In this document: one piece after another, positions 1,878 through 60,264 of the stretch
How the letters are laid out: each line of letters begins with the position of its first letter
Position numbering within the stretch: position 1 is the stretch's first letter
Assembly (NCBI RefSeq): GCF_050920415.1
Contig: NZ_CP169309.1
Length of the DNA stretch: 64,000 nucleotides
DNA from: Escherichia coli
GTDB taxonomy: Bacteria > Pseudomonadota > Gammaproteobacteria > Enterobacterales > Enterobacteriaceae
Direction: 5' to 3' (one strand)
Notes under the pieces: model-generated
What the model was told of the DNA's origin: nothing
What the model saw: the letters and a program-made list of their open reading frames with translations, nothing else
Database searches by the model: none
Translations under genes and position numbers: made by a program

Positions 1878-2256
1878 ATTCACCTTACCTAATTTGATTC
1901 TTCCAGGAATGCGTCGCACGTTGATAAACCTTCCACTGGCAACGAGTTACCGATATGGACTCGTTCTCTGCGGATATCAACCCCTTGTCGTGACTCTGTT
2001 CACGAAAATTCAGGTGACTGAGTTAACAGGTCTTGGCCTACAGGCGCTATAGCACGACGGAATTTTGGTCGAATGTCAAGCAAATCTATTGCCAGATTGA
2101 CGAAAGCGTCACACTGTACCTGATAAAATCCGATACGCAACTTTATTAGCATGCAAAATCCAAAGTTACCAGTAAGGCGCTCTTGCCACCAGCGTGGTAT
2201 ATTTGTCTGCAAGCCATGCCTGGCGTAGACTAATGTCCTTGTTTAAGGAGTAAATA

Positions 2257-2508
2257 ATGAACAAAGAGACACAACCCATCGACCGCGAAACGCTGTTGAA
2301 AGAGGCCAATAAAATCATTCGTGAGCATGAGGATACGCTCGCAGGGATTGAAGCCACCGGCGTCACGCAGCGTAATGGCGTGCTGGTATTTACCGGCGAC
2401 TACTTTTTAGATGAACAAGGATTGCCAACAGCCAAAAGCACCGCGGTGTTTAATATGTTCAAACACCTGGCCCATGTGCTTTCAGAAAAATATCACCTGG
2501 TTGATTAA
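2257..2508 (+). CDS. yciN: Small conserved protein YciN (83 aa)
   Basis: Track [33 protein letters not shown] recognised as YciN; lies between topA and sohB. Confidence 0.8.
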
Positions 2509-2543
2509 AGCAAAACGCGAGGTCTTACCCTCGCGTTTGTCTT

Positions 2544-3593
2544 TTACATCAATGGCTTTTGCCCCCGCTGCCACCAGCGTAGCAACAATCGATCAGCGCT
2601 CTCTGCCGCGCTGCCGGTGAATCGGTCAATGAGTCGTTTACGCTGCATATAGCGTACATTGACCACTTCACGGCCTTCCATCAGGCTAAGAATAACTTCA
2701 TCACTGGTGTTGATTTCATCAACCAGGCCTTTCTCTACCGCCTGTTGTCCGTACCAGTGTTCACCCGTTGCCACCTGTTCAATATCCAGAGACGGACGCA
2801 TACGCTTCACAAAATCTTTAAATAACTGATGCGTTTCGTTCAGCTCTTCGCGGAATTTCTCCCGCCCTTCTTCGGTGTTTTCACCCAGCAAGGTCAGCGT
2901 GCGCTTATACTGCCCGGCGGTGTGCAGTTCGATATCAATATCTTTGCTTTTCAGGAAGCGGTTAAAGTTGGGCATTTGCGCCACCACCCCAATGGAACCC
3001 ACAATAGCAAACGGTGCGGAAACAATTTTGTCCGCCACACAGGCCATCATGTAACCGCCGCTGGCAGCAACTTTGTCTACCGTAACAGTTAAAGGAATGT
3101 TTTTATCACGCAGACGCTGCAGCTGCGAAGCCGCCAGCCCGTAACCATGCACCATGCCACCAGGGCTTTCCAGACGTAGCACAACCTGATCCTGCGGTTT
3201 AAATGCTGCGAGTACCGCCGTTATCTCTTCACGTAGCGAGTTCACTTCATGGGCGTCCATGCTGCCTTTAAAATCCAGCACCCAGACGCGAGGTTTACTG
3301 TCAGTTGCCACCTCGCCCAGTTTGGCTTTCGCTTTTGCGGCTTTCGCTTCTTGCTTGTGCTTTTTCTTCTGCGCTTTATGCCACTGTTTTTGCTGATGAG
3401 TGTCCATCAGCGCCGCGGCCAGTTCTTCTTTCATCTCCTTATACTGTTCGCTGAGATTGTTGACCCGTAACTCGCCACGCTGGCGTTTATTACGTTGAGC
3501 AACATTGACAATAATGGCGGCAATCGCCGCAATCGCTAGCACAACGGTAACGATTTTCGCCAAAAACAAACCATATTCAGACAACAATTCCAC
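2544..3593 (-). CDS. sohB: Inner-membrane peptidase SohB (S49 family)
   Basis: 349-aa ORF with N-terminal membrane helix and S49 peptidase-like body; conserved position. Confidence 0.88.
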   Translation of the reverse strand: MELLSEYGLFLAKIVTVVLAIAAIAAIIVNVAQRNKRQRGELRVNNLSEQYKEMKEELAAALMDTHQQKQWHKAQKKKHKQEAKAAKAKAKLGEVATDSKPRVWVLDFKGSMDAHEVNSLREEITAVLAAFKPQDQVVLRLESPGGMVHGYGLAASQLQRLRDKNIPLTVTVDKVAASGGYMMACVADKIVSAPFAIVGSIGVVAQMPNFNRFLKSKDIDIELHTAGQYKRTLTLLGENTEEGREKFREELNETHQLFKDFVKRMRPSLDIEQVATGEHWYGQQAVEKGLVDEINTSDEVILSLMEGREVVNVRYMQRKRLIDRFTGSAAESADRLLLRWWQRGQKPLM

Positions 3594-3812
3594 GAGTCCC
3601 CACCTTGGTTAAACAACGCTTTGGCTCACAGTTTACAACAGGCATGTTAAGCCGTCTCGCAGAGATGTTATTGCAGCGAAAGTATGACAAAGTATCCATT
3701 TTGCGGTGTTATCGCCCCAGGCTGATTGAAATGCCCTTCTGTTTCAGGCATAAAGCCCCAAAGTCTTAAAGTACACTGGCAGCGCGACAGACAACGTCGT
3801 TGAGGAGTAGCC

Positions 3813-4571
3813 ATGCATTACCAGCCAAAACAAGATTTACTCAATGATCGCATTATCCTGGTGACGGGAGCCAGCAATGGTATTGGTCGTGAAGCCGCGA
3901 TGACGTATGCACGCTATGGTGCGACAGTGATTCTGTTGGGCCGTAATGAAGAAAAATTACGTCAGGTAGCCAGCCACATAAACGAAGAAACTGGGCGTCA
4001 GCCACAGTGGTTTATTCTCGATTTGCTGACCTGCACGTCCGAAGATTGCCAACAACTGGCACAGCGCATTGCCGTTAATTATCCGCGTCTGGATGGTGTT
4101 TTGCATAATGCCGGATTGCTCGGCGATGTTTGCCCAATGAGCGAGCAAAACCCGCAGGTCTGGCAGGACGTCATGCAGGTCAACGTTAATGCCACCTTTA
4201 TGCTCACCCAGGCACTGCTTCCTTTATTACTCAAATCGGACGCCGGTTCACTGGTCTTTACTTCATCAAGCGTTGGACGTCAGGGGCGTGCAAACTGGGG
4301 CGCTTATGCAGCGTCGAAATTTGCCACCGAAGGGATGATGCAGGTACTGGCCGATGAATATCAGCAGCGCCTGCGCGTCAACTGCATTAACCCAGGTGGT
4401 ACGCGCACCGCAATGCGCGCAAGCGCCTTCCCGACCGAAGATCCACAGAAACTTAAAACACCCGCTGATATCATGCCGCTCTACCTCTGGCTGATGGGCG
4501 ATGACAGCCGCCGTAAAACCGGCATGACCTTTGACGCCCAACCGGGCCGTAAACCAGGAATATCCCAATGA
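3813..4571 (+). CDS. yciK: Short-chain dehydrogenase/reductase YciK
   Basis: 252 aa with Rossmann motif VTGASNGIG; 4-bp overlap with btuR suggests an operon. Confidence 0.88.
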   Translation: MHYQPKQDLLNDRIILVTGASNGIGREAAMTYARYGATVILLGRNEEKLRQVASHINEETGRQPQWFILDLLTCTSEDCQQLAQRIAVNYPRLDGVLHNAGLLGDVCPMSEQNPQVWQDVMQVNVNATFMLTQALLPLLLKSDAGSLVFTSSSVGRQGRANWGAYAASKFATEGMMQVLADEYQQRLRVNCINPGGTRTAMRASAFPTEDPQKLKTPADIMPLYLWLMGDDSRRKTGMTFDAQPGRKPGISQ

Positions 4572-9313: not shown

Positions 9314-9358
9314 ATGAAAGCGATTTTCGTACTGAAAGGTTGGTGGCGCACTTCCTGA
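9314..9358 (+). CDS. trpL: trp leader peptide (14 aa, [14 protein letters not shown])
   Basis: ATG AAA GCG ATT TTC GTA CTG AAA GGT TGG TGG CGC ACT TCC TGA with tandem Trp codons. Confidence 0.9.
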
Positions 9359-9398
9359 AACGGGCAGTGTATTCACCATGCGTAAAGCAATCAGATAC

Positions 9399-9428
9399 CC
9401 AGCCCGCCTAATGAGCGGGCTTTTTTTT
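9399..9428 (+). terminator. trp attenuator (3:4 hairpin plus U-run)
   Basis: agcccgcc-taat-gagcgggc followed by eight T. Confidence 0.9.
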
Positions 9429-20553: not shown

Positions 20554-20592
20554 TAGTCAAAAGCCTCCGGTCGGAGGCTTTTGACTTTCTGC

Positions 20593-21312
20593 TTACTGAA
20601 TTTCGGTGGTGCCGTTAATTTTAAACAGGATATTCACCACAATCCCACTGCCTGGCTTACCCGGCTCATAACGCCATCTGCGCATCGCATTTTTCACCTC
20701 ACGCTCAAACATGTTCGCAGGCTTGGCTGAGAGGATTTGCACGTTATCCACGCGACCATCCGGCGTGACATCAAATTTAACTTTAACCTGCCCTTCAATG
20801 CGCAATGCCTGTGCTCGTGCCGGATACTGCGGCTGATTGCGACTTAATGCGCGTGGTCCTGAAGCCACACTTGTAACCGGCTTGCTGGTTGCAGCCGTCG
20901 CCGTACTTGATGTCGGGCGCGCGGGTGCCGTATTTTCAAACGGTGATGCCGGACGCGACTCTACGGGTTTGACATCGCGTTTTGGCTGCTCCTGTACCTT
21001 TTTCACCGGCTTCGGTTTTGGCTTAGGTTTCGGCTTAGGCTTTTCAATGACCACCGGTGCTTCTTTTGGCGGTTCAGGGATCGGCTCAGGTTCCGGTTCT
21101 GGCTCTACCACCGGCTCCGGTGGCGGCTGAACGGCTTGTGGCGGTTCGAGATCCGCAGGCGCAACCATCGTGACAGAAATTGGCTGCGCAGGCGCAGGTA
21201 GTTCAATAACCTGATGTACCGAGGTATAGAGCAGACCCGCCACAACAGCACCATGAATGCAGACCGAAAGTAACGTCGGCCAGGGGAAGCGGCGAGGTAA
21301 ATCAAGGGTCAT
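20593..21312 (-). CDS. tonB: TonB energy transducer (239 aa from [12 protein letters not shown])
   Basis: Pro-rich (EP)n/(KP)n spacer and C-terminal domain; internal start gives the known length. Confidence 0.92.
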
Positions 21313-21535
21313 TGAAGTCATAATCATTTCAGCAGAAAAACCAGGCCTCGATTTTAAATGCAAATAGCAATCATATTCAATAAGGCAAGACGATCAGGAT
21401 CAGTGAAAATGTCATTTTTGGCGTAATTGACCTTACTTTATGCATGGTCTTAACAAAGACATCATCTTTCCGTTGCAGATCTTCGCCCTTTCAAATAACG
21501 TACTTTACAACTTTCCCGAACAAGGAGTTGTGCCC

Positions 21536-42585: not shown

Positions 42586-42670
<85 letters not shown>

Positions 42671-42704
42671 TCTCAAGCATTACATCAAAATTTGAATTAT
42701 CCCT

Positions 42705-42789
<85 letters not shown>

Positions 42790-43501
42790 TCACTTTCAAA
42801 AGTTCCTGAAATCCCCAACAAATCCACAATTAAATATTCTGCCCATGCGGGGAAGGATGAGAAGCTTCGACTAAGGTTCGACTCGAGCGCCAGCGAGAGA
42901 GCGTTGCCGCAGGCAACGACCCGTAGGGCGAAGCGCGCAGCGCTGAGTAATCCTTCCCCCACCACCATCACTTTCAAAAACCCCTGTATTCTCCAACGAA
43001 TCCGTAACTGAATATTCTGCCCATGCGGGGAAGGATGAGAAGCTTCGACTAAGGTTCGACTCGAGCGCCAGCGAGAGAGCGTTGCCGCAGGCAACGACCC
43101 GTAGGGCGAAGCGCGCAGCGCTGAGTAATCCTTCCCCCACCACCATCACTTTCAAAAACCCCTGTATTCTCCAACGAATCCGTAACTGAATATTCTGCCC
43201 ATGCGGGGAAGGATGAGAAGCTTCGACTAAGGTTCGACTCGAGCGCCAGCGAGAGAGCGTTGCCGCAGGCAACGACCCGTAGGGCGAAGCGCGCAGCGCT
43301 GAGTAATCCTTCCCCCACCACCATCACTTTCAAAAACCCCTGTATTCTCCAACGAATCCGTAACTGAATATTCTGCCCATGCGGGGAAGGATGAGAAGCT
43401 TTGACTAAGGTTCGACTCGAGCGCCAGCGAGAGAGCATTGCCGCAGGCAACGACCCGTAGGGCGAAGCGCGCAGCGCTGAGTAATCCTTCCCCCACCACC
43501 A
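42790..43501 (+). repeat. Four tandem 178-bp direct repeats (rtT region), each ending in the last ~19 nt of tRNA-Tyr
   Basis: Unit boundaries 42790-42967, 42968-43145, 43146-43323, 43324-43501; copies 2-4 near-identical, copy 1 diverged at its 5' end; each ends ccttcccccaccacca. Confidence 0.9.
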
Positions 43502-59324: not shown

Positions 59325-59729
59325 CAGTTATATCTCCTCCGATGACAGAAATCGGGGGAGATAATATAAATTCCTGCTTATTGTATTTCTTCATACTACC
59401 TGAACAGGTCGTTAATCAGAATTGCGAGCCTGTACCACAACCTGCACGAAACCACTGCAACAGCTGTTGAAAAGCCGGAATGTACTCTTTATTGCAAACA
59501 TTTCAGGGATGAAGTGAAGATGAATTGAGACGTAATATCCACACCAAGCCGGCGTTATCCGGTGAGGCGCAATGTTGCGGGGGCTTTATCCCTGGTGGCA
59601 TTGGTTGCTGGAAAGAGAAAACCCCCGCACGTTGAGAGGTAAAACCTGACAACAGAACGGGGGCTAATCTTGAACCATCAACAATTCAAGAATAGCCGCA
59701 AAATGTTGTCATTACAACAAGGCGGCTAT

Positions 59730-59837
59730 ATGACGCTCGCGCAGTTTGCCATGATTTTCTGGCACGACCTAGCGGCACCGATCCTGGCGGGGATTATTAC
59801 CGCAGTGATTGTCAGCTGGTGGCGTAACCGGAAGTAA
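59730..59837 (+). CDS. ldrA: Type I toxin Ldr, 35 aa (MTLAQFAMIFWHDLAAPILAGIITAVIVSWWRNRK)
   Basis: 35-codon ORF read directly; matches the LdrA sequence; below the ORF-track size cutoff. Confidence 0.85.
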   Translation: MTLAQFAMIFWHDLAAPILAGIITAVIVSWWRNRK

Positions 59838-60264
59838 GGTGAAAACGGGCGTCAGGCTGCCGTGATGGCAATATGCGCCCGAAACCGGCCGCAGGGGTAA
59901 CAGCCTGCGGCCCTTTTTGTCTTTATCTCTTCTGCAAGTAAATATTGGCAACCCGAGCTGGAAGCATCATCCAGAGCACTCATGAAACGACTGTAACAGC
60001 TGTTGAAAAACCGGAATGCACTCTTCATTGCAAACATTTCAGGGATGAAGTGAAGATGAATTGAGACGTAGTATCCACACCAAGCCGGAGTTATCCGGTG
60101 AGGCGCAATGTTGCGGGGGCTCTATCCCTGGTGGCATTGGTTGCTGGAAAGAGAAAACCCCCGCACGTTGAGAGGTACAACCTGACAACAGAACGGGGGC
60201 TAATCTTGAAACCAGACACTTCAAGAATAGCCGCAAAATGTTGTCATTACAACAAGGCGGCTAT

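Follow-up and report, generated by a model that had tools for sequence, protein, structure and literature searches.

Rare in-frame length variants in the repeat that encodes the proline-rich spacer of Escherichia coli TonB

The periplasmic spacer of TonB is encoded by a run of short, similar codon units, which raises the question whether this tract is a fast-slipping locus that retunes the protein between strains, or an ordinary coding repeat that changes length only occasionally. According to the literature (Kohler 2010, via PMC9022066 and PMC5413942), the proline-rich domain adopts an extended polyproline-II (PPII) conformation whose length suffices to cross the periplasm and to bring the C-terminal domain of the inner-membrane-anchored TonB to the outer-membrane transporters. 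PMC9022066 further cites Larsen 1994 for the observation that deletion of the motif leaves TonB function unabolished. Only Enterobacterales, Pasteurellales and B. pertussis have paired PPII segments of opposite charge (PMC12204202). In addition to its role in transport, TonB is generally known to energise the entry of many phages and colicins (PMC11658791). Here, we address the question from a stretch of 64,000 nucleotides of E. coli DNA (hereafter the window) and from a comparison of its tonB tract with those of other strains. The original prediction for this locus held that the tract is prone to slippage and that the length of the spacer differs between strains.

The gene at 20593..21312 on the minus strand translates into 239 codons and a stop (239 aa), and by all sequence comparisons its identity as E. 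coli tonB is certain. The NCBIfam equivalog NF008083 matches residues 1-239 at 539.5 bits (cutoff 448), Pfam PF16031 (TonB_N) matches residues 33-157 at 130 bits, and PF03544 (TonB_C) scores 72 bits. The solved structure of E. coli TonB (9ddo, chain F) aligns end to end (1-239, E = 2.9e-150), and the PDB matches, which include the C-terminal domain, comprise 1u07, 2gsk, 2grx and 9ddo. The DNA of the gene matches that of the tonB annotated in E. coli 2013C-4282 at 100% identity, and the protein is 99% identical to TonB of K-12, from which it differs by A51T and P133L. The order yciI / tonB / yciA among the open reading frames of the window is that of the neighbours at annotated E. coli loci. 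The following features of an Enterobacteriaceae-type TonB are present: the equivalog match, the SHLS anchor residues, the proline-rich domain, the C-terminal domain and the gene context. The residues of the SHLS motif (as defined in PMC12204202), S16, H20, L27 and S31, are invariant across the alignment of TonB alleles. Given its near identity with the characterised K-12 protein, the TonB of the window would transduce energy together with ExbB-ExbD to outer-membrane transporters. The C-terminal domain of TonB binds the Ton box of these transporters.

The start codon is the ATG at 21312, as in annotated tonB loci, and the mechanically called reading frame begins at an upstream TTG at 21363 (256 aa). 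The frame is open throughout the interval 21313-21363, and the N-termini in databases vary accordingly in form (MIMTS..., MTS..., MANAT...). Such alternative N-termini split one TonB allele into several exact sequences, which means that exact look-ups miss common alleles. Of the 5,426 complete genomes of E. coli, 5,422 have a tonB match of at least 97% identity that coincides with the annotated gene; the other four have no match and may carry tonB deletions. In an assembly of strain XL1-Blue (NZ_CP132550.1; positions 2001-3980 of the extracted locus) an element of the IS4 family (ISVsa5/IS10-like) interrupts tonB near its 3' end, resulting in a 233-aa product with an altered C-terminus.

The coordinates of the features of the locus are collected in the table. 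The hairpin between tonB and yciA looks like a terminator in both directions, and is thus a candidate bidirectional terminator. For the promoter-like site upstream of tonB, shuffled sequences also yield one such site by chance. An antisense reading frame at 20837..21130 on the plus strand (97 aa, Gly/Ser-rich) was rejected as a gene, since it mirrors the Pro/Glu/Lys codon repeats of the opposite strand. At a greater distance, the window contains a tryptophan operon leader (9335-9428, plus strand; RF00513, 93 bits), so that the trp operon and tonB are about 12 kb apart. The trp-tonB segment is a classical neighbouring region. Further repeats occur elsewhere in the window. At 42586-43501 (plus strand) a pair of tRNA genes precedes four RtT RNA repeats in tandem (Rfam RF00391, 124-133 bits each), which may differ in number between strains. 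At 59616-60217 (minus strand) two rdlD-type antitoxin sRNAs (RF01813) lie ∼540 nt apart, and their arrangement indicates a tandem ldr/rdl type I toxin-antitoxin array.

Table. Features of the tonB locus and of its spacer tract, in window coordinates.
Feature	Position	Strand	Remarks
N-terminal membrane anchor, ~codons 12-32	21217..21279	-	S16-H20-L27-S31 (SHLS) in translation
C-terminal TonB domain, codons 160-230	20623..20835	-	Pfam PF03544; solved structures 1u07, 2gsk, 1ihr
Acidic proline block, codons 66-82	21067..21117	-	(EP)4 core at 21082..21105
(EP)4IPEPP stretch, codons 70-82	21105..21067	-	translation
Linker KEAPVVIE, codons 83-90	21043..21066	-	between the two oppositely charged blocks
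Basic proline block (KP)6, codons 91-102	21007..21042	-	main natural length-variation site
AGCCGGTG, 5' copy of 8-nt direct repeat D2, codons 66-68	21109..21116	-	pairs with 21004..21011
AGCCGGTG, 3' copy of D2	21004..21011	-	105 nt from 5' copy; bounds natural 105-bp deletion
GAACCGCCA, 5' copy of 9-nt direct repeat D3, E56-P57-P58	21139..21147	-	pairs with 21067..21075
GAACCGCCA, 3' copy of D3, E80-P81-P82	21067..21075	-	72 nt from 5' copy; bounds natural 72-bp deletion
AGCCAAAA, 3' copy of 8-nt direct repeat D4	20980..20987	-	partner at 21016-21023, 36 nt away; matches 36-bp deletion
Perfect 14-bp-stem hairpin AGTCAAAAGCCTCC...GGAGGCTTTTGACT	20555..20586		between convergent tonB and yciA
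Promoter-like site upstream of tonB (TTGAAT, 18 nt, TAAAAT)	21351..21380	-	consensus match only

The spacer consists of an acidic and a basic proline block. The original prediction had placed an EP peptide followed by a KP peptide on the minus strand. Both peptide strings are correct and lie entirely within 21000-21125, but the acidic block holds four EP units before IPEPP where three had been given, and the eight-residue linker KEAPVVIE between the blocks had gone unmentioned. The plus-strand strings quoted for the tract, ggttccggttctgg and ggcttaggtttcggcttaggc, are indeed the reverse complements of its codons. Across residues 56-112, 21 of the 57 residues are proline, and the longest (XP)n run of the protein counts six units. 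This is well outside chance expectation, as 20,000 shuffles that preserve the composition reach at most four.

At the DNA level the tract is less regular than its translation. In the window, the KP units read AAGCCT AAGCCG AAACCT AAGCCA AAACCG AAGCCG and the EP units GAGCCA GAACCG GAACCT GAGCCG; no two neighbouring 6-nt units are identical, and the repeat is therefore imperfect. Tandem Repeats Finder recovers the KP part only (21008-21043, period 12, 3 copies, 83% matches, score 51), while the EP block remains unflagged with a score below 30. The window allele carries a synonymous change from CCG to CCT in the first KP unit, which removes the sole perfect AAGCCG-AAGCCG dimer that is found in K-12 and most strains. 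Compared with the common allele, the repeat self-match of the window allele falls from 8 to 5 nt at a period of 6 nt and from 9 to 6 nt at a period of 24 nt, and rises from 5 to 8 nt at a period of 12 nt. With its shorter self-matches at 6 and 24 nt, the window strain should be less prone than most to the common events that add or remove one KP unit or remove four.

We also considered whether codon choice has been under selection against perfect repeats, and rejected this idea, as there is no significant deficit of identical adjacent pairs. From the codon usage of the long open reading frames in the window, ∼1.3 such pairs are expected in the KP block and ∼0.7 in the EP block, and 0-1 and 0 are observed, respectively. 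Among the lysine codons of the KP tract, AAG accounts for 4 of 6, against ∼20% in the long reading frames of the window (binomial p ~0.02). This excess is consistent with units born by duplication of AAGCCG. Across genera of the Enterobacteriaceae the EP / PPKEAPVVI[E/H] / KP architecture is kept, with 2-5 EP and 2-6 KP units, which is consistent with weak stabilising selection on spacer length.

How often does the length of the tract differ between strains? Short allele-specific queries and identity bands were applied to 5,423 complete records of E. coli; the counts are approximate and refer to the matches listed. The modal allele, (KP)6, is carried by ∼97.5% of the records, mostly with AAGCCG AAGCCG as its first two units. 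(KP)7, which has a third AAGCCG, occurs in ∼123 records (107 + 16, both by identity band), and (KP)5, which has lost one AAGCCG, in 3. Single records carry (KP)2, by a 24-bp deletion (strain E105), and (KP)10, by the reciprocal 24-bp duplication of units 3-6 (strain AH19E045). The EP block is nearly invariant in length, with changes in at most 2 of the 5,423 records, one of which was verified as (EP)5 (strain KE48, duplication of GAACCG). In the wider protein collection, which includes draft genomes, (KP)4 is found in Shigella flexneri on 173 contigs, and (KP)5 and (KP)2 recur in S. sonnei and E. coli. An exact look-up of a synthetic (KP)1-10 series returned matches for 2, 4 and 5 KP units; its negatives are uninformative, because the very common 6- and 7-KP proteins were absent as well.

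Repeat number is hence not identical in all strains, and the expected difference in spacer length is borne out by (KP)2, 4, 5, 7 and 10 and by (EP)5. The notion of a slippage-prone tract needs to be narrowed: the alleles are explained by misalignment of direct repeats, but they are rare (∼2.4% of complete genomes) and mostly belong to one clonal (KP)7 haplotype. A literature search for natural variation of the tonB repeat number in E. coli or Klebsiella returned nothing relevant, although such an allelic series could still have been published.

Several of the length alleles recur on different backgrounds. (KP)7 is present on at least three SNP backgrounds, namely a non-B2 background, the B2 background of EPEC E2348/69, where it is seen in four separate E2348/69 or O127:H6 records, and an ST131-like B2 background. 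Both B2 haplotypes have GCT at codon 85 and lack Q107, and in the ST131-like one the first AAA-type unit additionally reads AAACCA. (KP)5 is found on at least four protein and two DNA backgrounds, and (KP)2 and (KP)4 on two backgrounds each. At the same time, 123 records share the 1.3-kb haplotype of the main (KP)7 strain at 99% identity or more, whereas the class that follows, at 98.7%, is of the 6-KP length. Most (KP)7 genomes are therefore clonal inheritors, in which this length is stably passed on. Some alleles are fixed in lineages: one large clade of E. coli and EPEC E2348/69 carry (KP)7, and a lineage of S. flexneri carries (KP)4.

Immediately downstream of the KP tract, at 20992-20997 (codons 106-107, GTA CAG), there is a further, separate in-frame polymorphism of 3 bp. 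In ∼20% of genomes (12 of 60, sampled at an even spread) GGTGGAG replaces GGTACAGGAG, which deletes Q107 and gives a 238-aa TonB; several of these strains are presumably B2-type, judging from phylogroups that we assign by strain name. The only verified (EP)5 allele resides on a record labelled as a plasmid (KE48 'plasmid unnamed1', NZ_CP141085.1, 385 kb) together with the block cls-kch-yciI-tonB-yciABC-ompW. In total, 13 tonB matches are on plasmid-labelled records, which may represent pieces of the chromosome assigned wrongly or large excisions from it.

Besides changes in unit number, the spacer has suffered larger losses. A homology search identified E. coli/Shigella TonB proteins of 227, 223, 218, 214, 212, 211, 203 and 200 aa, and these eight deletion classes map within residues 56-112 as in-frame spacer losses of 12-38 aa. 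Since protein databases contain in-frame variants only and frameshifted copies become pseudogenes, this bias towards in-frame events is partly one of ascertainment. Two further short variants reach beyond residues 56-112, one of 229 aa without residues 127-135 and one of 199 aa without residues 90-129. For three of the deletion classes the junction was verified on DNA. The 218-aa allele, present on 37 contigs, has the junction GAACCTG|AGCCAAAA with AGCC as microhomology. In the 214-aa allele, verified at one locus, 72 bp are lost between two copies of GAACCGCCA, and in the 203-aa allele, present on 7 contigs and verified at two loci, 105 bp are lost between two copies of AGCCGGTG. The 36-bp deletion of the 227-aa TonB (KPKPKPK|RDV) was mapped from two protein sequences only.

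The junctions point to repeat misalignment as the source of these variants. In the common allele, the KP units read AAGCCG AAGCCG AAACCT AAGCCA AAACCG AAGCCG, and each KP allele is the product predicted from them: the gain or loss of one unit falls at the perfect AAGCCG dimer, the loss or gain of 24 bp at the CCGAAGCCG pair, and the loss of 12 bp at AAGCC. Every junction that was checked on DNA lies at a direct repeat of 4-9 nt that the window contains as well, and an independent repeat search of the window returned pairs spaced 12, 36, 72 and 105 nt apart, matching the natural deletions. Across 16 distinct deletions the microhomology at the junction averages 4.6 nt, several values being derived from protein-level mapping onto the reference DNA. 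Two of the tabulated values are underestimates caused by ambiguous protein placement, as the DNA gives 5 nt for (KP)4 and 9 nt for (KP)2. Random in-frame deletions of the same sizes have a microhomology of 1.2 nt when drawn from the whole linker and 1.6 nt when drawn from the spacer alone, and none of 2,000 simulations reaches the observed mean.

From the structure of the junctions and the recurrence of the alleles, we infer that slippage generates the length variants. Coding of the EP and KP segments by CCN-rich hexanucleotide units gives rise to many direct repeats that are 4-9 nt long and have a spacing of 6 to 105 nt. When such repeats occasionally misalign, by replication slippage or by microhomology-mediated deletion or duplication, units or whole segments would be added or removed in frame. 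Because the spacer tolerates changes in length, some of the variants could persist and be passed on clonally, and for the same reason they are probably near-neutral. The impurity of the repeat, together with stabilising selection on reach, would hold ∼97.5% of strains at six KP and four EP units.

The alternative that the tract acts as a contingency locus, in which fast slippage adaptively retunes or switches TonB, for instance to escape phages or colicins, has some initial appeal. Length alleles exist, they recur on different backgrounds, and the protein energises the entry of many such agents (PMC11658791). We nevertheless give this idea very little credence. One length prevails in ∼97.5% of complete genomes, and the main (KP)7 allele is stably tied to one haplotype in ∼120 genomes. 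The common allele has no more than two identical adjacent units, (KP)7 has three, and the window has none. The 6-nt unit is in frame and thus provides no on/off switching of expression, and all observed variants keep full-length reading frames. Moreover, since deletion of the motif does not abolish function (Larsen 1994, via PMC9022066), small changes in length would confer little resistance. In line with this, the tract of tonB shows neither a long perfect array, typically of at least five identical units or a long homopolymer, nor expression switching through frameshift or promoter spacing, nor high variability among close isolates, the hallmarks by which contingency loci are recognised.

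Nor do the variants look like sequencing or assembly artefacts at a low-complexity repeat, an explanation that we consider almost certainly wrong. Every change is an exact multiple of 3 nt and has its junction at a direct repeat, and the tract of 36 bp is shorter than typical reads and k-mers. While repeats are error-prone in long-read-only assemblies, and (KP)10, (EP)5 and the (KP)2 of E105 are unreplicated within the complete-genome set, (KP)7 is present in ∼123 independent complete assemblies, among them the four of E2348/69 or O127:H6; (KP)4 and the 218-aa allele recur on 173 and 37 contigs, respectively, and (KP)2 appears independently in assemblies of E. coli E105 and S. sonnei. A third possibility is that recombination imports whole tonB alleles between lineages or species, with no local slippage involved. 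E. coli recombines in the tonB region, as is generally known, and the main (KP)7 haplotype is at least 11 SNPs per 1.3 kb away from the nearest 6-KP class. Against this stand the B2 alleles with seven and five KP units, which retain the B2 SNPs and the loss of Q107 right beside the tract, so that the unit number alone has changed. Other genera mostly have five or fewer KP units and divergent flanks, which makes them unlikely donors. Import as the source of the variants is thus very unlikely, even if recombination or gene conversion could move existing length alleles between backgrounds.

Taken together, we propose that the tract encodes two oppositely charged polyproline-II spacer segments with rare length variants that arise by repeat misalignment in an otherwise ordinary coding sequence, a reading to which we assign a probability of about 0.85. 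The tract is capable of slippage but is not hypervariable; its protein feature and its mutational mechanism are both of known kinds, and it is a stable, ordinary coding repeat rather than a fast-switching locus. It is conceivable, though we consider it improbable, that the series of spacer lengths (∼-38 to +8 residues) is under selection, with periplasmic reach following envelope geometry or with partial resistance to phages or colicins as the benefit. Some of the large deletions could be impaired alleles that were selected by phage or colicin pressure or have arisen in culture.

The practical impact of this repeat is small, as it is a textbook feature encoded by a mildly unstable sequence. 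It does provide a ready natural series (2, 4, 5, 6, 7 and 10 KP units, five EP units, and deletions of 12-38 aa) for tests of linker length and force transduction. In addition, it implies that a difference in tonB length met in typing or annotation reflects a real polymorphism in frame and should not be taken for an error.

The closest known system is the TonB domain of E. coli K-12, which shares the gene, its architecture and its repeat numbers, (EP)4 and (KP)6; it differs from the window by the synonymous CCT, through which the window lacks the AAGCCG-AAGCCG dimer of K-12. The K-12 domain, at residues ∼66-102, was reportedly described by Postle and Good in 1983, Evans in 1986, Brewer in 1990 and Kohler in 2010. 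The engineered TonB delta(66-100) (Larsen, Wood and Postle 1994) has a natural counterpart in the 203-aa TonB, which lacks residues 67/68-101/102 through the AGCCGGTG repeat. Unlike the engineered protein, the natural alleles are spontaneous and occur in assemblies of wild isolates. With the simple-sequence contingency loci in surface genes of Haemophilus and Neisseria, tonB shares short coding tandem repeats, an envelope protein as product and polymorphism in unit number. However, those loci have tetra- or pentanucleotide units, whereas in tonB the repeats are impure and built from units divisible by 3, length changes are rare and clonally stable, and there is no on/off switch. Finally, domain II of TolA and the linkers of other periplasm-spanning force transducers are likewise length-tolerant spacers that provide reach. 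Segments of domain II can be swapped or replaced by disordered linkers (PMC10666116; PMC12204202), and deletion of domain II lowers function by cutting reach (PMC10666116). In contrast to domain II of E. coli TolA, which is alpha-helical and built from Lys/Ala/Glu repeats, TonB uses charged dipeptide repeats in the PPII conformation.
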